From assembly GCA_013151785.1 (NCBI GenBank), contig JAADHP010000029.1, forward strand, positions 1 through 25,659: a stretch of 25,659 nucleotides of DNA. Direction: 5' to 3'. Source of the stretch: Nitrospirota bacterium (GTDB taxonomy: Bacteria > Nitrospirota > Thermodesulfovibrionia > Thermodesulfovibrionales > JdFR-85). The notes beneath the pieces were generated by a model. That model saw only the letters and a program-made list of their open reading frames with translations. It ran no database searches and was not told the DNA's origin. Of this stretch, positions 1,794 through 23,011 are shown in pieces. How positions within the stretch are numbered: position 1 is the first letter of the stretch; each line of letters begins with the position of its first letter. The position numbers and the translations under genes were made by a program.

Positions 1794-1868
1794 AGGAAAT
1801 TCCTTATAATTAGTTTATTGTATAAAAGCAGGTTAAAAGACCATAAAGGATAACATAATGCTTGGAAT

Positions 1869-2555
1869 ATGAAAAAGTATTTATTAAAAGAGTATGGTTC
1901 CTGGGCGGTGGCTACATTTAGCTATATTGCCGGTATAACCGGTGGTAGCTATGATGTAAACAGGCTGATAATAGGAGCCCTGGCCTGTTTTCTGCTGATA
2001 AATTCAAAGGAGGCCCTGGCCCAATGGTTTAAGGCATCAAAGAAGGAGGCTGCTCCGGCTTTTTTTATCCAGGCACTGCTTGGTGCTATTATAATTATGT
2101 TTATATTAAAAGACGGAATTACAGATTTTATACCATATATGGTATTGCCAATACTGTACATTGTATTTTTCAGGTTTAAAGGTGAACACTTTTTATTAAC
2201 CGAGGTTACAGGTTTTCTCTCACTTGGGCTTTCAACACTTGTTTCATATTATATATGTAATGCCGGAATCAATTTTACCCTCTATATGGTGGTGGCACTT
2301 TTCTTTACGGCAGGGGTTTTTAAGGTAAGGCTCCAGTTAAGGAAGGGACTCTTCGAAAAACTTACCATGCTCGGTTATGTAGCGTTTCTTGTGGTTGTAT
2401 ATTTACTGACTGGTACATCATTGGTCATTGCTTTGCCCCTTGTGGAGAATATTTTTTATGCCCTGAAACCATATAAGGTAAAGCTCAGATACACTGGCTG
2501 GATCGAGCTTTCCAAATCATTGGCCTTCCTGATTTTGTTGAAGTTGTATAGCTAA
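1869..2555 (+). CDS. YwiC-like integral membrane protein
   Basis: N-terminal KEYGSWA resembles the YwiC P-x-(E/Q)HGAW motif; multiple hydrophobic segments; C-terminal GWIEL. Confidence 0.7.
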   Translation: MKKYLLKEYGSWAVATFSYIAGITGGSYDVNRLIIGALACFLLINSKEALAQWFKASKKEAAPAFFIQALLGAIIIMFILKDGITDFIPYMVLPILYIVFFRFKGEHFLLTEVTGFLSLGLSTLVSYYICNAGINFTLYMVVALFFTAGVFKVRLQLRKGLFEKLTMLGYVAFLVVVYLLTGTSLVIALPLVENIFYALKPYKVKLRYTGWIELSKSLAFLILLKLYS

Positions 2556-2643
2556 AAAATGATGAAATAACAATAAGTTAAGCAACTTCAACCCCTTAAT
2601 AAACCTGATAAAAAAAACTTATATAAGGATTTTAATTTTTTTC

Positions 2644-2673
2644 TTGAAATCTAAAAAAGGGTTTATGTAGTAT
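2644..2673 (+). promoter_or_regulatory. Putative sigma70 promoter for adk-sat-aprBA
   Basis: TTGAAA (2644-2649), 18 nt spacer, TAGTAT (2668-2673), 53 nt before the adk ATG. Confidence 0.45.
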
Positions 2674-2726
2674 ATTGCGGTTTCTGTGTGGGGTCTGTTC
2701 AAAAAACTCTAATGGAGGTATAGATA

Positions 2727-3377
2727 ATGAGAATCGTTTTATTAGGCGCACCAGGTGCGGGGAAGGGGACTCAGGCAAAAAAACTCATTGAAAAATATGG
2801 CATTCCTCAGATTTCCACCGGCGATATCCTCAGAAAGGCAGTAGCAGATGGCACACCTTTAGGTAAAGAGGCAAAATCATATATGGACAGGGGTGAGCTT
2901 GTTCCAGATTCAGTTGTGATTGGTTTGGTTAAAGAGCGTCTTCAGCAGGATGACTGCAAAAAGGGCTTTATTCTTGATGGCTTTCCACGCAATACATCCC
3001 AGGCAGAGACCCTGGATCAGGTCCTTGACGAGATGGGTATGCCACTTCAGGTGGCCCTGAGTGTGGATGTTGACTTTGATGTGCTAATGAAGAGGCTCAC
3101 AGGTAGAAGGACTTGCAAGTCCTGTGGTCAGATGTATAATATATATTTCAGCCCACCTCAGAAGGAAGGTGTTTGTGACAAGTGTGGAGGGGAGCTCTAT
3201 CAGAGGGATGACGACAAGGAAGAGACCATCAAGAAGCGTCTCGAGGTTTATGAGGCCCAGACAGCACCACTGATAGATTATTATGAGAAAAAGGGAATTC
3301 TTAAAAGGGTAAATGGCGTAGGCAACATAGACGAGATCTTTGCCAATATCTGTGCAATCTTAGACAGCATCAAATAA
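2727..3377 (+). CDS. adk: Adenylate kinase with four-Cys (metal-binding) LID
   Basis: P-loop [29 protein letters not shown]...CDKC; SD GGAGG. Confidence 0.98.
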
Positions 3378-12631: not shown

Positions 12632-14674
12632 ATGGAAAGTTTAACTAATCTGGCTGCGTTGTTCGGGGCTGGGGGATTGCTACTGGCACTTATAATCTTT
12701 GCTGCAGTCTCAAAAAAGCCAGACGGCAATGAGACAATGCGTGAGATTGCAGCAATGATTCATGAAGGTGCCATGGCATACCTGAAGAGACAGTACAGCA
12801 TACTGTCTATCTTCATTATTATTGTTTTTATTGCCATGTTCTTCTACCTTGGCGCACCATCTGCAATTGCCTTCCTCTCTGGAGCAATATGTTCAATTGC
12901 AGCAGGTTTTCTTGGTATGAAGGCAGCTACTAAGGCAAATGTCAGAACTGCAGAGGCAGCAAACCAGTACAAGCCTGATCACTCGAAGGCTCTATCGGTT
13001 GCATTTAATGGTGGGGCTGTTATGGGTCTTGCTGTAGCAGGTATCGGTCTTTTGGGTGTAGGTATTTTCTATTATCTCTATGGTCGTGATCCACAGACAG
13101 CATTTATAATCAATGCCTTTGGTATGGGTGCCTCATCAATAGCCCTGTTTATGCGTGTTGGTGGTGGTATTTATACAAAGGCAGCCGACGTTGGTGCCGA
13201 CCTTGTTGGTAAGGTTGAGGCAGGAATTCCGGAAGACGACCCACGTAACCCTGGTGTTATTGCTGACAATGTGGGCGACAACGTGGGCGATGTGGCTGGT
13301 ATGGGTGCTGACCTTTTTGAGTCTTATGTTAACTCTATTATAGCTTCTATTGCTATAGGTGCAACTGCCGCAGTTGGCTCCAAGATAGCCGGTCTTGGTT
13401 CACCGCTTCACCTTATGGCACTCCCTGTGCTGCTTGCTGTAATGGGTATAATCTCTTCAGTGCTGGGCATCCTTGCAATGAGAATACTTGAGAAGATGGA
13501 TCCTGCAGCAGCTTTACGTTATTCGACCTTTATAGCTGCTGGTATATTTCTGGTTCTTTCCTATTTCGCAACCTCTTCACTTGAGGTAAGCAATCATGTA
13601 TTCTGGGCAGTTGTTGCTGGTTGTATTGGCGGTATAATAATCGGTCTTTTAACAGAGTACTACACCTCTGGTGCTCCAATTAAGAAGATTGCAGAGGCCT
13701 CACAAACAGGACCAGGTACTAATATAATTACTGGTCTGGCAGTAGGTCTTGAAAGTACAGCCCTTCCAGTGCTTGGTATATGTCTTGCAATTTTTATTGC
13801 CGACAGGGTTGCAGGTCTCTATGGTATTGGTATTGCTGCAGTTGGTATGCTTGGTACAATTGGTATAACCATGAGTGTTGACGCTTATGGCCCAATTGCT
13901 GACAATGCCGGTGGTATCTCTGAGATGGCTGGTCTTGGTGAGGATACCCGTGAGATCACCGATAGCCTGGATGCACTGGGTAACACAACAGCAGCAATCG
14001 GTAAGGGTTTTGCAATCGGCTCTGCTGCACTAACAGCACTTGCTCTTTTCTCTGCATACACTCAGAGTGTTAATGCTGTTAGAGTACAGAAAGGTCTGGA
14101 GAAACTCTCAATTATAATCACAGATCCAATGGTGGTTATCGGTTTACTGTTAGGTGGAATTCTACCATTCTTTGTTGCAGCTCTTACAATGACAGCTGTT
14201 GGTAAGGCTGCTTTTGAGATGGTTAACGAGATCAGACGCCAGTTCAGGGAAATTCCTGGTCTGTTAGAAGGAAAGCCTGGTGTTAAACCAGACTCTAAAA
14301 GATGTGTTGATATCTCAACTGCATCAGCTTTAAAGCAGATGATACTTCCAGGCCTTACTGCTGTTATAAGTCCTATACTTGTTGGATTCTTATTAGGCCC
14401 GGCAGCCCTTGGTGGTATGCTCGCTGGAGCTACAGTTGCTGGTGTAATGTTAGCACTTATGATGGCCAATGGTGGTGGTGCCTGGGACAATGCCAAAAAG
14501 TATATCGAGAAAGGTAACCTCGGTGGTAAGGGGTCAGAGGCTCACAAGGCTGCCGTTGTTGGTGATACAGTGGGTGATCCATTCAAAGATACCTCTGGTC
14601 CTTCAATGAACATTCTAATCAAGCTTATGAGCGTTGTTTCACTGGTTATTGCTCCATTAATTGCCCTTTTATAA
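12632..14674 (+). CDS. hppA: Membrane-bound ion-translocating pyrophosphatase, K+-dependent family, probably Na+-pumping
   Basis: [55 protein letters not shown]; GNTTAAIG (Ala, not Lys); GADLFESY; SD AGGAGG. Confidence 0.95.
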
Positions 14675-17591: not shown

Positions 17592-18526
17592 GAACGCCTC
17601 CCAAATCCGAATATCCTTTTTAACTTGGAGAAGTCTCCAACTATTCCGTTAGGCAAAAAGATTATTATCAGTATAAGCAGGATGCCAAACAGTGTTTGAT
17701 GGGCAGAGCCAAGCCTTGGCAGACTCCTTATGAACTCTGCAAGTATGACCATTATTACAGCACCAACAACAGGCCCCCAGAAGGTGGCCACTCCACCAAC
17801 CATAACAACCATTATGGTTACGATTGATATGTCATGAAGTGCAAAGACCACTTCGGGGTCGATGTATCCCATGTAGTTAGTATAAAAGGCACCGGCAAGA
17901 CCGGTCAGTACGGCACTAAGGCAAAGGGCAATGGTTTTGTAAAGAGTTGTGTTTATTCCAAGGGATTCGGCTGCATCCTGGTCTTCCCTGATTGCTACAA
18001 AGTAGTATCCCAGGCGCGACTGGATTACCTTTCTTACAACCAGAAATGTAAAAAGCGAAAGTCCCAAAATTATGTAGTAGTACCAGGTCTTTTCAACCCA
18101 GGTTCTTTCCTTTAGCATTATGCCAAGGGTGCCCTGGGTAAAGTTTCTCAGGTTTTCTGCCGTTACCCTGAAGACCTCTCCCATTGCAAGGGTGGCAAGG
18201 GCAAAGAATGGGCCTCGAAGCCTAAGGCAGATAAATCCGATAATTAATGCCTCTACCACAAGTATCGGAATGCTAAGCGGTATGCCCCACCATGCAGAAA
18301 CTCCACCTTTAAAATAAAGTATTCCGGCTGTGTAGGCACCTACACCAAAGAATGCAGCATGTCCAAAGGAGACCTGCCCGCAGTAACCACCAAGAAGATT
18401 CCATGCCATACCGATCACCGACCACATGAGCATCAGTATCAGTATGTGCATCACATAGGTGCTAAGTCCCAGAAAGGGAAGCACTGCCATAAGAGCAAAA
18501 ACTATGTAAGGTGCGTATCTCTTCAT
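17588..18526 (-). CDS. livM: Branched-chain amino acid-type ABC transporter permease
   Basis: WNLLGGYCGQVSFGHAAFFG, LRLRGPFFALATL, AIREDQDAAESLG. Confidence 0.93.
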   Translation of the reverse strand: MKRYAPYIVFALMAVLPFLGLSTYVMHILILMLMWSVIGMAWNLLGGYCGQVSFGHAAFFGVGAYTAGILYFKGGVSAWWGIPLSIPILVVEALIIGFICLRLRGPFFALATLAMGEVFRVTAENLRNFTQGTLGIMLKERTWVEKTWYYYIILGLSLFTFLVVRKVIQSRLGYYFVAIREDQDAAESLGINTTLYKTIALCLSAVLTGLAGAFYTNYMGYIDPEVVFALHDISIVTIMVVMVGGVATFWGPVVGAVIMVILAEFIRSLPRLGSAHQTLFGILLILIIIFLPNGIVGDFSKLKRIFGFGRRS

Positions 18527-19452
18527 CCTCCAAGCCTTCGTCTTCTAAGTAGTGATGCCACTCCACCGGGCAGAAATATAAGGGCTAAAATAAAAATGGC
18601 AAACCTGCCAACCGGTGCCCAGCCCATACCAATATAGGTGGCTGTTAAAGATTCAAAGATTCCAAGTAGCAAACCACCAATAATTGCTCCTACTGTAGAG
18701 CCAAGGCCACCAAGGATGGTGATAACAAAGGCGATAAGTGTAAACCTTCCACCAAGGGCTGGATAAAGATAATATATGGGAATAAAAAGACATCCAGCAG
18801 CCCCCACCAGTGCTGCACCAAGGCCAAAGGTGATAAGCCTCATGCGCTCCACATTAACGCCCATCAACAGGGCGGCATCAATGTCCTGGGCAGTTGCCCT
18901 TATTGATTTACCGGTGTCTGTTTTGCTTAGAAAAAACCACAGTGCAATGGTAATTATCACAGCCATCACAAAGGATACGGTCCAGGGTACAGAAAGGGAT
19001 AACTCGATAGGGGAACCTCTCCAGTAATCGCTCAGATACCAGGCATCAGAGGCATAATCCACAGGGGTTGAGCGATAATCAGAGGTAAAAAAGATTGTCG
19101 CCAGATTGGCAAGCACCATACCGATTCCAACGGTAAGGATTACCTGGTTTTCGGGAAGAATGGATTCCACCTTCAGCACTGGATTTATAAGAAATTTCTG
19201 GATGGCCATTCCAAACAAAAACATCAGTGGGGCCACAATGAGAACAGATACATAAGGGTCTATATGAAAGAGCACGAATAGCCAGTAGGCCATGTACATG
19301 GCCACCATCATAAGCTCACCATGAGCAAGATTGATGATCTTCATTACGCCCATGATGAGCGTCATGCCAATACCTATTAAGGCATACAGACCACCCAGTA
19401 GGAGGCCTGATATTAGGGTTTGAAGCAGTACCTCTAAGGCTACTGAGTCCAC
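18523..19452 (-). CDS. livH: Branched-chain amino acid-type ABC transporter permease (GTG start)
   Basis: GGLYALIGIGMTLIMGVMKIINLAHGE, GKSIRATAQD, ILGGLGS; SD AAGGAG. Confidence 0.93.
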   Translation of the reverse strand: MDSVALEVLLQTLISGLLLGGLYALIGIGMTLIMGVMKIINLAHGELMMVAMYMAYWLFVLFHIDPYVSVLIVAPLMFLFGMAIQKFLINPVLKVESILPENQVILTVGIGMVLANLATIFFTSDYRSTPVDYASDAWYLSDYWRGSPIELSLSVPWTVSFVMAVIITIALWFFLSKTDTGKSIRATAQDIDAALLMGVNVERMRLITFGLGAALVGAAGCLFIPIYYLYPALGGRFTLIAFVITILGGLGSTVGAIIGGLLLGIFESLTATYIGMGWAPVGRFAIFILALIFLPGGVASLLRRRRLGG

Positions 19453-19509
19453 AATATTAATATCTCCTTACACTACTGTCCGATATTAATGATTATTTGT
19501 TGTAACATA

Positions 19510-19634
19510 GAGGATATTAATTTTGAGCGGTTTTAATTTTGCTAAAAATTTGCCATGGAGGGCAAATAGCAAAATTTCCTTAGAACAGACCAGGGATAGC
19601 CTGTGAGAATGAGTCAAAAAATTAATATCCCCTG
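19510..19634. mobile_element. Palindromic MITE/REP-like element, copy 1 (between livK and livH)
   Basis: Terminal inverted repeats GGATATTAATTTT/AAAATTAATATCC, internal hairpins; 31 nt (19512-19542) identical to 20978-21008. Confidence 0.75.
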
Positions 19635-19664
19635 TGTTTTTATTATCAGACACTACGGATTTCC

Positions 19665-20858
19665 TTACCTTCTATCGCGCCAGCGTGGTATAGGATATAC
19701 ATAATGTTTTGTTGCATATTTTACGGGCCAGATGGTCTCATGTTTACCATTGATGACCTGTAGAACCAGGGTATCCATGAAGTTCTGGTTCTGGTAGCCC
19801 TCGCGGTCTTCGAACTTGATAGGACCAAAGGCAGTAACAATGTTGGTCTTCTTCATGGCAACCCTGATGTCCTCTGGTGTCCAGGACTTTGCCCTTTCAA
19901 GGACATCCTTTATCACATAGAGAGCTGAATATGCCTCGGCACCATGATAAGATGGATATTTGCCATAGCGAGATTTGTATTTTTCAGCAAACTCCTTGGC
20001 CCCTGGGTATGAAACCTGTGGGCTCCAGAGGGTTGCTGTTACCACATACTCGGAGGCATCCTTTGCGTTTTCTATAAACTCAGGGATTGCAAAGCCTGCT
20101 GCACCACCGGCAAAGAGTTTGGCGTCTATTCTGAGCTCTTTTATCTGTCGCATAAGTAGTGCAGCATCCATCACATAAGAAACCATATAAATTACATCTG
20201 GCCTTTTTGATTTAACCTTTGAGAGTATTGGTTTGAAATCGACTGCTCCACTTTCATATTTTTCTTTAAGAACCACTTTTATGCCAAGTTTTTTGGCATC
20301 CTTTACCATTCCTTCGGCACCCTTTGTGCCAAAGTCAGAGCTTTCATATAGGATTGCTATGGTTTTAGGTTTTACCACCTCTTTGAGAAAGGATCTAAGA
20401 CCGCTTGTGTAGTATGAGACCGATGGGTTCATACGGAAAACATATTTATAGTTCTGTTGGGTTATATTATCTGCAGCACCTGTAACTACCAGATAAGGAA
20501 CTTTACGTTCCTCTGCAACTGCGGCAATTGCCTTTGAGCACGATGAGCTATATTCACCGAAAATAACAGGCTGTTTCAGCACATCGATTATCTTCTCTGC
20601 TATTGCCCTTGAGATTTCAGGCTTGCCCTGTGAGTCTTCAAACTCGAGTATGACTTTCTTCCCTTTTATACCACCCTTTGCATTTATTTCCTCCATGGCT
20701 ATCTCATAAGAGCGTTTCTCAATTTCACCAAACTTTGCCTTGCTCCCTGTCAGTGGTAGAGGGATTGTAAATTTTACTGTATCTGCAGCCAGACTAAATC
20801 CGGCAAAGACAAACACCATAAAAAAGGCCAGAACCCCGACGACCCATCTCTGTCTCAT
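19665..20858 (-). CDS. livK: ABC transporter substrate-binding protein, Leu/Ile/Val-binding (PBP1) family
   Basis: Signal peptide (..FSLA-ADT), PLTGSKAKFG, EEINAKGGI, GEYSSS, YVFRMNP; SD AAGGAGG. Actual substrate not determinable from sequence. Confidence 0.9.
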   Translation of the reverse strand: MRQRWVVGVLAFFMVFVFAGFSLAADTVKFTIPLPLTGSKAKFGEIEKRSYEIAMEEINAKGGIKGKKVILEFEDSQGKPEISRAIAEKIIDVLKQPVIFGEYSSSCSKAIAAVAEERKVPYLVVTGAADNITQQNYKYVFRMNPSVSYYTSGLRSFLKEVVKPKTIAILYESSDFGTKGAEGMVKDAKKLGIKVVLKEKYESGAVDFKPILSKVKSKRPDVIYMVSYVMDAALLMRQIKELRIDAKLFAGGAAGFAIPEFIENAKDASEYVVTATLWSPQVSYPGAKEFAEKYKSRYGKYPSYHGAEAYSALYVIKDVLERAKSWTPEDIRVAMKKTNIVTAFGPIKFEDREGYQNQNFMDTLVLQVINGKHETIWPVKYATKHYVYPIPRWRDRR

Positions 20859-20898
20859 GACAACCTCCTTATTGTTTATTGATGTTTTTAATAGGATA

Positions 20899-20907
20899 AT
20901 TATACCA
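20899..20907 (-). promoter_or_regulatory. Extended -10 promoter for the liv operon
   Basis: Minus strand reads TG-G-TATAAT, 40 nt upstream of the livK ATG. Confidence 0.6.
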
Positions 20908-20973
20908 TATTATAGTTTCAAAAAAGGTTCGTTGTGGAGTCGGGTAAGAATACGAGAAGAACAGATTAGAATA

Positions 20974-21100
20974 CAGGGGATATTAATTTTGAGCGGTTTT
21001 AATTTTGCAAAGTGCTTGCCGTGATGGCAAGCACGCAAAATTTCCTCGGAGCGGGCCATGGATGGCCTGCGAGAATGAGACGAAAAATTAATATCCCCTG
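20974..21100. mobile_element. Palindromic MITE/REP-like element, copy 2 (most intact)
   Basis: Perfect 20-bp inverted repeat ATACAGGGGATATTAATTTT (20971-20990) / AAAATTAATATCCCCTGTAT (21084-21103), i.e. CAGGGG...CCCCTG flanked by TA on both sides; two internal hairpins. Confidence 0.8.
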
Positions 21101-21153
21101 TATATATCATTGTTCTCGGAAGGTAGTGCAGATGAATAATTATTGTTTAAAAG

Positions 21154-21246
21154 GACAGAGGGGTAATGGGTCTGAACGGTTTTGATCATCACCAAAGCCT
21201 CACCTGGATGGTGAGGCATGATGTGAAGGTCCATTACCCCTCTGTC
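21154..21246. mobile_element. Divergent shorter member of the same palindromic family, copy 3
   Basis: 16-bp perfect inverted repeat GACAGAGGGGTAATGG/CCATTACCCCTCTGTC; motif TGAACGGTTTTGAT (12/14 identical to copies 1-2); hairpin GCCTCACC-TGGAT-GGTGAGGC. Confidence 0.7.
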
Positions 21247-21259
21247 TTTAGCGCAAAAT

Positions 21260-21277: not shown

Positions 21278-23011
21278 ATGGAAGTCATTGTACATAACTA
21301 TGATACAGTTATAATTGGCTCCGGCCTTGCAGGCCTGAGAGCAGCCCTTGAGACCACTGCTACGGGTTCTGTAGCAGTGCTTGCCAAACTTTATCCTACC
21401 CGCTGTCATTCCACTGCTGCACAGGGTGGTATTGCTGCAGCCCTTGGCAATGAAGAACCAGACAGCCCTGAATGGCATTTTTACGACACAGTAAAAGGCA
21501 GTGATTTCCTTGGCGACCAGGATGCCATAGAGGTAATGTGTGAGGATGCAGTTCGTACAGTGGTGGAGCTTGAGCACATGGGAGTACCCTTTTCCCGCAC
21601 ACCTGAGGGCAAAATTGCCCAGAGGCGTTTTGGTGGACATACAAGGGAGTTTGGAGCCGCACCTGTTAGAAGGGCCTGTTATTCGGCAGACCGCACAGGC
21701 CACGCCATAGTGTTTGCCCTGTATGAACAGTGTATGCTTAAGGGTGTTCAGTTTTTCTCTGAGTTTCATGTGCTTGACATAGTGGTGGAAGAAGGAAGAT
21801 GCCAGGGTGTTATTGCAATGGAAATAAAGACAGGCAAGCTACATGCCTTTCAGGCAAAGGCAACGCTGGTTGCAAGTGGTGGGTATGGAAGGGTCTTTAA
21901 AACCACATCCAATGCACTGGCAAGCACCGGTGATTGCCTTGGAATGCTTTTTAATCGTGGACTTCCGCTTGAGGATATGGAGTTTTTCCAGTTTCATCCA
22001 ACCGGTATCTATGGCCTGGGCATACTTATTACCGAAGGTGCAAGGGGCGAGGGAGGAGTATTGAGAAACTCAAAGGGCGAGAGGTTTATGGAGCGTTATG
22101 CGCCCACAATAAAAGACCTTGCACCAAGAGACATGGTTTCAAGAGCCATACTTACCGAGATAAGGGAGGGCAGGGGAATTGATGGTAGAGACTATGTCTA
22201 TTTAGACCTTACCCATGTGCCAAGGAAAAACATAGAGGAACGCCTTCCGGAGATCTCATCCTTCTGCAAGATATACCTTGGCATCGACCCTGCAGAGGAA
22301 CCAATCCCGGTGCTTCCAACTGCCCATTATGCAATGGGTGGTATCCCCACTGATGTGGATGGCAGGGTGTTAAGAGACGAAAAGGGCGTAACTGTTGAAG
22401 GGCTTTATGCTGCTGGTGAATGTGCCTGCGTGTCTGTACATGGGGCAAACCGGCTTGGTTGCAATTCACTGCTTGATACGGTTGTGTTTGGCAGAAGGGC
22501 AGGCAAGGCAATAAACAAGGAACTAAATGGATTAAAGCAGGGTAGTATTAAAAAGGAATTAATCAATCAGGTGTTTGAAGAGATTGACAGACTAATAAAT
22601 TCAAAAGGTACGGAAAAAATAGGGAAGATAAGAAAGCAGCTTCAGCAGAAGATGATGGAGCATTGCTCAGTGTTCAGAACCGAAGAGCACCTGAAGATGC
22701 TCATTGATGAGCTTAAGGATATTAAGGAGAGATACAGGGATATTGGCCTTAAAGACACTTCCGGTGCCTTTAATACAGAGTTGTTAGAGGCTATAGAGCT
22801 TGGCCACCTGATAACTCTTTCAGAGGTGATTGCCCACTCGGCCCTGAGGCGTACAGAAAGCCGTGGGGCCCACTACAGGGAGGACTTTCCAAAAAGGGAT
22901 GATGAAAACTGGCTTAAACATACCCTGGCCTTTAAGAAAAGCGGTGCAATTGAGTTTGCATACAAACCAGTCAGGATTACTAAATTTCAGCCCCAGGAGC
23001 GTAAATACTGA
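21278..23011 (+). CDS. sdhA: Succinate dehydrogenase / fumarate reductase flavoprotein subunit
   Basis: [14 protein letters not shown] (flavinylation His), [45 protein letters not shown]. Confidence 0.97.

Follow-up and report, generated by a model that had tools for sequence, protein, structure and literature searches.

Does a structured sequence that is repeated three times in a stretch of Nitrospirota DNA represent a non-coding RNA or a piece of mobile DNA? The stretch, hereafter the window, is the 25,659-nucleotide contig JAADHP010000029.1 of assembly GCA_013151785.1, which is contig C107 among the 307 contigs of this 2.0-Mb, 72% complete assembly ("this genome" in what follows). The original prediction had offered both answers, a novel RNA motif or a non-autonomous mobile or REP-type family recognised by its structure. 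We propose, with a probability of about 0.8, that the three copies belong to a family of miniature transposable elements with inverted repeats (MITEs), of a known kind by their insertion mechanism, that carry one conserved structured module. The two answers would then not exclude each other, as the substitution pattern points to one strand that folds, either as RNA or as single-stranded DNA.

Three copies in the window and about 150 in the genome

Repeat finding in the window reveals a direct repeat of 132 nt (19504-19635 and 20970-21101, 80% identical) together with a closing inverted repeat in each copy: 19504-19524/19618-19638 in copy 1 (21 nt, 90%), 20971-20990/21084-21103 in copy 2 (20 nt, 100%) and 21151-21169/21231-21249 in copy 3 (19 nt, 95%). 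A covariance model built from 42 diverse copies of this genome (model R1, alignment A1) finds the same three places with cmsearch, all on the + strand, scoring 125.3 bits at 20974-21100, 108.9 bits at 19508-19634 (E 7e-27) and 49.2 bits at 21157-21243. The last score is low because copy 3 lacks the second hairpin, a peculiarity that had been noticed from the start and that is confirmed by alignment A1 and by the deletion of 28 model positions in the R1 match. Folding z-scores against dinucleotide shuffles range from -5 to -10 for the three copies, on both strands. The places and core positions first proposed therefore stand; the full lengths do not, copy 1 spanning 19471-19658 and copy 2 approximately 20934-21132.

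The count of three holds for the window only. The covariance model, which had been suggested as a check, has at least 147 matches in this genome, amounting to about 1% of it, and a nhmmer profile made from 15 copies recovers 180 places. Many copies are located at contig ends, so that they probably contribute to the fragmentation of assemblies of this kind. Within the order Thermodesulfovibrionales, R1 matches occur in 49 of 121 genomes belonging to 11 of the 13 families, with one to more than 28 copies per genome, and they extend beyond it to another order of the class and to two other classes of the phylum. Nucleotide similarity alone reaches only the window's own family. We found no literature on such repeats in Thermodesulfovibrio.

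Target-site duplications and an empty site

The full element of copy 1 (19471-19658, + strand, 188 nt) consists of outer ends, CACTACTGTCCGATA.../...TATCAGACACTACGG, arms, closing stem and a core at 19508-19634, and its termini fit the consensus CA[AG]T[AG][GC]TGTCCG[AG]TAAA common to 10 paired elements of this genome. It is flanked by the 9-bp target-site duplications ATCTCCTTA (19462-19470) and ATTTCCTTA (19659-19667), identical at 8 of 9 bases, which read TAAGGAGAT and TAAGGAAAT on the minus strand. There, the left duplication holds the AAGGAG ribosome-binding site of a permease gene (18523-19452), and the right one, judging from the sequence and the list of open reading frames, the TAA stop of a binding-protein gene (19665-20858). 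The target duplication gives back both the stop codon and the ribosome-binding site, so that copy 1 could insert between two genes of an operon without harm. The corresponding site is empty in five related genomes (G017, G009, G013, G011 and G015), where the two genes lie 8-38 nt apart around a single copy of the target (GGCTCCTTA in G017), and in G005 an element of a different subfamily has inserted in the same gap. For copies 2 and 3 we found no counterpart upstream of the closest sdhA orthologues, where synteny is not kept.

The same signature recurs across the family, whose members are dispersed, non-coding and 190-250 nt long. We located ends and duplications by pattern searches, local alignment being unreliable in the AT-rich flanks. 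Elements of what we call backbone type II (subfamily A, to which copy 1 belongs; ends CAGTRSTGTCCGRTAAA, inner arms CAGGGGATATTAATTTT) show exact 9-bp duplications in six copies other than copy 1. Those of type I, with ends CCCAAATCC (also found as CCCAAATCCAG), are bordered by AT-rich duplications of 5-6 bp: in subfamily B, of about 57 copies with ends CCCAAATCCAGC, 22 have exact 5-bp AT-rich duplications, and ends related to these, with duplications of 5-6 bp, are found in subfamilies C, D and E. From base composition, we estimate the chance of finding such a duplication at a given pair of ends to be about 5e-6 for 9 bp and 1e-3 for 5 bp. Short non-coding copies, shared inverted ends, duplications of fixed length and presence/absence polymorphism, four hallmarks of MITEs, are thus observed, and the non-autonomous mobile family first suggested is borne out by the target duplications and the empty sites.

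An IS630-type insertion at a TA dinucleotide, proposed in a companion note, has to be rejected, because the TA that adjoins CAGGGG...CCCCTG at the perfect repeat of copy 2 falls within a stem and reads GA/TC or CA/TG in other copies; the true ends lie about 35 nt further out, where type II elements have the 9-bp duplication.

A three-way junction maintained by compensatory changes

The module shared by all subfamilies is about 125 nt long and comprises a closing stem of 16-29 bp (P1), a three-way junction and two hairpins, P2 and P3. The first junction strand is YTGARCGGNTTT, the second CCTCGGAG and the third CGAGAATGA..YGAAA, and the motif TGA(G/A)CGGTTTT that had first attracted attention is real and corresponds to this junction. 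P2 is a two-part hairpin with an A-rich bulge of 5-6 nt on its 5' side and the loop CCNGGAKGG; the P3 loop is CATGGATG, a reading found in 47 of about 90 copies. Both loops are of the form (A)YGGA(Y), with P2 matching AYGGAY in part. A fourth hairpin, GGGGNCCCCAGAAAATC-loop-GATTTTCTGGGG, is optional and is inserted in the junction, between GAGAAT and GATGTG, in 25 of 106 copies of this genome, distributed over subfamilies A, B, D and E (for example C2:3436-3602 and C87:5641-5808).

The subfamilies have very different stem sequences on one architecture. The exchange of TTTGC/GCAAA for CATCA/TGATG, correctly recognised among the three copies of the window, turns out in alignment A1 to be that of the basal P2 helix between two subfamilies. 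Among the 42 copies of A1, 33 of the 39 base pairs have changed on both sides, and covariation persists in a larger alignment (A2) of 51 copies from more than 25 genomes, where 38 of the 39 pairs have done so and 96.9% of the cells are paired. This last value falls to 36-43% when the partners are slid by one to three columns, and none of 500 shuffles reaches the observed values. Fitting to the model favours pairing in A2, but A1, to which no such fitting was applied, gave the same outcome. It is therefore structure rather than stem sequence that is conserved, as originally anticipated, and in A2 one-sided changes are rare in comparison with double ones.

The pattern continues into the junction, where P1 goes on antiparallel with U:A, G·A, A·G, a co-varying R:Y and usually C:G. 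This extension is a tandem sheared G·A motif in the 5'-YGAR-3' context, the one favoured for such pairs, and motifs of this kind are stable in both RNA and DNA. The R:Y pair is followed strictly within this genome, each of the roughly 80 copies with TGA-A-CGG having ..TG(T)AA and each of the 23 with TGA-G-CGG having ..CGAAA or ..CGGTAA, with a single exception among the 51 copies of the cross-genome alignment. Junction and loop bases are near-invariant across families, orders and classes, with more than half of the stem positions replaced. Judged by these comparisons, fold and junction are shown to be under constraint. No reading frame is conserved, as the stems co-vary regardless of codons; a coding function was rejected, the ATG of some loops not being conserved.

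The imperfect pairs tell the two strands apart. Among the paired cells of A2, G·T or T·G occurs 58 times versus 12 for A·C or C·A (binomial p 2e-8), and the closing stems of 106 copies of this genome have 50 G·T versus 7 A·C, or 32 versus 6 when distinct events are counted. Consistently, folding energy is lower for the motif-sense (+) strand than for the other in 76 of 82 copies. A constraint on duplex DNA, or gene conversion from arm to arm, would predict equal numbers of G·T and A·C; the excess of G·U over A·C therefore indicates that pairing of the single + strand is maintained. As G·T is tolerated in RNA and single-stranded DNA alike, the + strand is predicted to fold as one or the other. 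The GC skew around the copies (-0.024 ± 0.010) is uninformative about any bias towards a replication strand.

One module on two unrelated backbones

Two unrelated backbones surround the module, copies 1 and 2 of the window being on type II. An alignment by eye of subfamilies A and D limits the shared part to the core together with about 27 bp of P1; further out, the backbones are unrelated. Conversely, type II ends enclose unrelated insides in C262, in C224, in a family beginning with CAGTAGTGTCCAGAATAATTTCAG and in a 286-nt element of G057 with the duplication ATCTACAGG. This gene-less 286-nt element also accounts for the contig ends in G057 and G079 that we had considered as candidates for a full-length element, and which we rejected. 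Short core-less forms exist for both backbones, and since they keep fragments of P1 or of the junction, they are deletion products rather than empty vehicles. Other gene-less families have CAGTAGTGTCC ends and different insides (CAGTAGTGTCCAGAATAATTTCAGATTTGTAAACAAGGCAGGG...), for example at C21:8134, C22:3235, C105:5375, C245:1320 and C295:276, and in some of them short repeats of the GGTAAATGAGTAAATG type occur in runs.

Relative to the asymmetric outer arms, the core lies in either orientation, in proportions of 34:12 in subfamily B and 10:2 in A. The best tree of B cores requires six changes of orientation, at least two of them forced by supported branches, and identical or near-identical B cores occur in opposite orientations. 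We infer that the module has inverted repeatedly between its P1 arms.

One core copy has itself served as a target: at C50:1-3272 (L096, L011) an IS1634 element is inserted in its P2 helix, directly followed by an IS1380 element (1799-3272).

Candidate transposases

The transposase genes of interest in this genome are one of IS1380, two of IS1634 and one RAYT. IS1380 and IS1634, whose DDE transposases are related to IS4, resemble the type I backbone in several respects, as the type I ends (CCCAAATCCAGCG) are similar to those of IS1380 (CCTGAATCCTGCG, alike in G057) and of IS1634 (CCTAAAATCC, with the 6-bp duplication TTAATC in G003), and the duplications are AT-rich and 5-6 bp long. However, the ends are similar without being identical, neither IS1380 nor IS1634 elements have a core inside, their occurrence does not track that of the family, and copies 1 and 2 are on the other backbone.

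Two further candidates were tried and rejected. ISAs1 was considered for type II on account of a truncated gene beside one type II end in G079, but it looks like a chance neighbour, as the same type II ends occur in G057, G013, G011 and this genome, in none of which ISAs1 was found. A derivation from IS200/IS605, in the manner of PATE or omega-RNA elements, is contradicted by the inverted ends and target duplications and by the fact that no TnpB zinc-ribbon domain was found in this genome (72% complete).

At L018:1250-1350 (G003:C9), a tandem array of about eleven 9-mers (TCAAACGGT with variants, among them TTGAACGGT) adjoins the left end of an IS1634 element, its unit resembling the core junction motif TTGAACGGTTT.

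Comparison with known elements and RNA motifs

Among bacterial MITEs, ERIC/IRU of enterobacteria, bcr1 of Bacillus cereus and the Correia elements of Neisseria are non-coding, intergenic sequences of 100-250 nt with terminal inverted repeats and target duplications, present in up to hundreds of copies in either orientation and having a stable hairpin-type fold, for some of which compensatory changes have been reported. The present family is like them in size, inverted ends, duplications, copy number, orientation and fold. It differs in having one core on two backbones (with 9-bp and 5-6-bp duplications), a phylum-wide distribution and a fold of one strand. MITEs are, moreover, usually defined by their ends, and their insides drift, whereas here the inside (junction and loops) is conserved and the ends vary. 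A conserved inside, a one-strand fold and two backbones together point to an unrecognised partner, protein or process, that reads the shape of the module, and the element would then offer a handle for finding it.

The suggestion of novelty stands in part. No Rfam family matches the window at gathering thresholds, and relaxing the limit to E up to 10 yields nothing but noise from snoRNA and miRNA models; none of the ribozyme cores compared with the junction by eye (hammerhead, twister, hairpin and others) fits, so that known ribozymes and riboswitches were rejected. There is, nevertheless, a weak resemblance to one orphan motif. TwoAYGGAY (RF01731) is an RNA motif from the human gut, Gammaproteobacteria and Clostridiales whose function is unknown (Weinberg et al. 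2010, PMC2864571). At E up to 10 it matches this genome four times, and the three highest-scoring matches (19.8, 19.7 and 19.4 bits) fall on these elements and on the right strand; these scores are well below the gathering score of 43, so that the family is not a member by the Rfam rule, and in the window itself RF01731 does not appear even at that E limit. In these alignments P3 is matched by the second hairpin of RF01731, GCCaUGGAuGGC, and P1 with the outer arms by its long closing helix. Both thus have a long closing helix around two hairpins, the second of which in TwoAYGGAY (GCC-AUGGAU-GGC) aligns to P3 with the same polarity. By contrast, the P2 loop of the module is no more than (N)UGGAK, the two differ in junction sequences and in host phylum, and the module resides in mobile DNA. 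We regard the module as either a distant relative of TwoAYGGAY or a case of convergent design. If related, mobile DNA would be a possible biological context for this long-orphan motif.

Mechanism and alternative explanations

In the explanation that we favour, MITEs carrying a structured module, the backbones would be moved in trans by DDE transposases, and the module would be kept because only copies with a foldable + strand multiply or persist. Our preferred guess is that a protein binds the folded + strand, contacting its G·A junction and both of the like loops. Several observations weigh against this scheme. For neither backbone did we find an autonomous element whose ends match exactly, and for type II there is no candidate partner at all; IS1380 is present in only 5 of 22 relatives, although the module occurs in most of them. 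In genome G062 (L165-L174), each copy has its own P1 sequence of 19-29 bp, perfectly self-complementary, and the copies share no outer arms or terminal inverted repeats and show no evident target duplication; such copy-specific stems are not explained by a sequence-specific transposase. Copy 2 of the window has decayed outer ends around a perfect inner fold. Finally, relative to co-directional flanking genes, 29 cores are antisense and 13 sense (p 0.02), so that read-through host transcripts would mostly carry the strand that folds less well. The sequencing runs that contain the window are all DNA runs, none of RNA being listed among them.

The G062 copies and copy 2 suggest that the module is maintained on its own account. 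Taken further, the module could be autonomous, read by its shape on one strand and deeply related to TwoAYGGAY, promoting its own spread via a protein that reads the loops and the G·A junction, and riding on at least two unrelated backbones. We consider this extension tentative; if true, it would define a new class of structure-defined elements in bacteria, selfish or domesticated.

The main rival explanation, which we also hold to be possible though doubtful, is that the module is a functional non-coding RNA, distantly related to TwoAYGGAY and having a protein partner, possibly a reverse transcriptase, for which the backbones are mere vehicles. Such an RNA would agree well with the strand-specific G·U pairs, the elaborate conserved junction with its tertiary-type R:Y pair, the two like loops, of which P3 reads CATGGATG in about half of the copies, the three RF01731 matches on the right strand with the second hairpin on P3, and the persistence of the fold where the backbone is absent (G062) or decayed (copy 2). 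However, 19-20 bits is far from the gathering score of 43, the cores are mostly antisense to neighbouring genes, no conserved promoter was seen by eye inside the element, and some 150 copies would be odd for the gene of a trans-acting RNA. As for the reverse transcriptase, we rejected the link: none was found in this genome, of the 11 genomes of the window's taxonomic family a single one has the enzyme as against 9 that have the element, and none of 24 reverse transcriptase genes has a core within 1.5 kb.

An unlikely alternative is a single-stranded-DNA element handled by a Y1 (HUH) transposase, such as a RAYT or that of IS200, which would bind the two hairpins on one strand, the closing stem being target DNA because the module would insert at the tips of palindromes already present, among them other miniature transposons. 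Two same-strand hairpins with like loops, the strand asymmetry, the copy-specific closing stems of G062 with no duplication, and the central position of the module, in both orientations, within two unrelated palindromic backbones would be expected from such an element. Yet this genome has no empty closing-stem palindromes, each GGGGATATTAATTTT arm being matched by a partner about 110 nt away; within subfamilies, closing stem and core multiply together; and the core-less forms keep pieces of the closing stem and are deletions, not empty targets. The presence of one RAYT gene in this genome also speaks for this alternative, as does the finding of RAYT-like genes in 41 of the 49 genomes with the module and in 42 of the 72 that lack it (p 0.005, related genomes not being independent), but G014 and G011 have many module copies and no RAYT, and at the RAYT locus here (L012) we found no model match, no hairpin repeats and no element within about 1.4 kb on either side. 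A RAYT link, a weak statistical association with no adjacency, was therefore rejected. Nor is the REP/RAYT part of the original prediction supported. REPINs are likewise abundant intergenic hairpin repeats with compensatory stem changes, but the present family differs from them by its target duplications and by a three-way junction in place of a REP doublet, with no GTAG/CGTC head seen by eye.

The remaining idea, that no selection acts on the fold and that one arm is copied onto the other by strand switching or by repair templated on the hairpin, the junction being conserved through youth alone, is largely refuted and very improbable. In its favour are the repeated inversion between arms, which shows that the arms interact, a palindromic P3-P4-P3'-P2' rearrangement of the core at C50:1-170 and the rarity of one-sided relative to double changes. 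Youth, however, cannot explain junctions and loops that stay near-invariant across classes with more than half of the stems replaced, and arm copying predicts no excess of G·T over A·C and leaves unexplained the R:Y covariation between two unpaired junction strands.

Copies 2 and 3 and their surroundings

The full extent of copy 2 is probably 20934-21132 (+ strand). These limits are approximate, as the outer ends are degenerate, fitting the type II consensus by eye at 13 of 19 and 8 of 13 bases with the stem going on as GAGAAGAACA.../...TGTTCTC, and no recognisable target duplication was found at them. Its core (20974-21100, placed with alignment A1) has a minimum-energy fold of -65.3 kcal/mol (z -9.8). 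All on the + strand, P1 pairs 20972-20990 with 21084-21102 and is followed by the first junction strand, GAGCGGTTTT (20991-21000). P2 has a basal part (21001-21008 with 21035-21042), an A-rich bulge (21009-21011) and an apical part (21012-21020 with 21026-21034), P3 pairs 21052-21059 with 21062-21070, its loop lying inside CCATGGATGG, and the last junction strand is GAGAATGAGACGA (21071-21083).

Copy 3 (21151-21249, + strand) represents another subfamily, G, and ends 29 nt before the start of sdhA at 21278. Within its 19-nt closing repeat it has the junction TCTGAACGG and a P2 hairpin GATCATCAC.. / GCCTCACC-TGGAT-GGTGAGGC, P3 being missing. Comparison with a full-length relative (C84:3594-3720) suggests that the hairpin was lost by deletion between two TGATG repeats.

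Upstream of the binding-protein gene, the minus strand contains a promoter-like site at 20909-20938 (TCCACA, an 18-nt spacer and TATAAT; 10 of 12 matches, the best of the region). As its -35 box lies inside the degenerate left outer arm of copy 2, this copy may supply part of the promoter of the binding-protein operon.

The sdhA gene (21278-23011) is 84-90% identical to its counterparts in G010, G003 and G017, which belong to another genus, and 76% identical to those of genomes of the same genus. This assembly also contains second, diverged copies of sdhA and of liv stretches (contigs C162 and C49). These findings may reflect mis-binning of the window contig or gene transfer.

Finally, an inverted match of 23 nt (87%) links 14252-14274, in a region earlier labelled hppA, with 19575-19597, part of the P3 region of copy 1; it may be due to chance or represent a fragment of the repeat.

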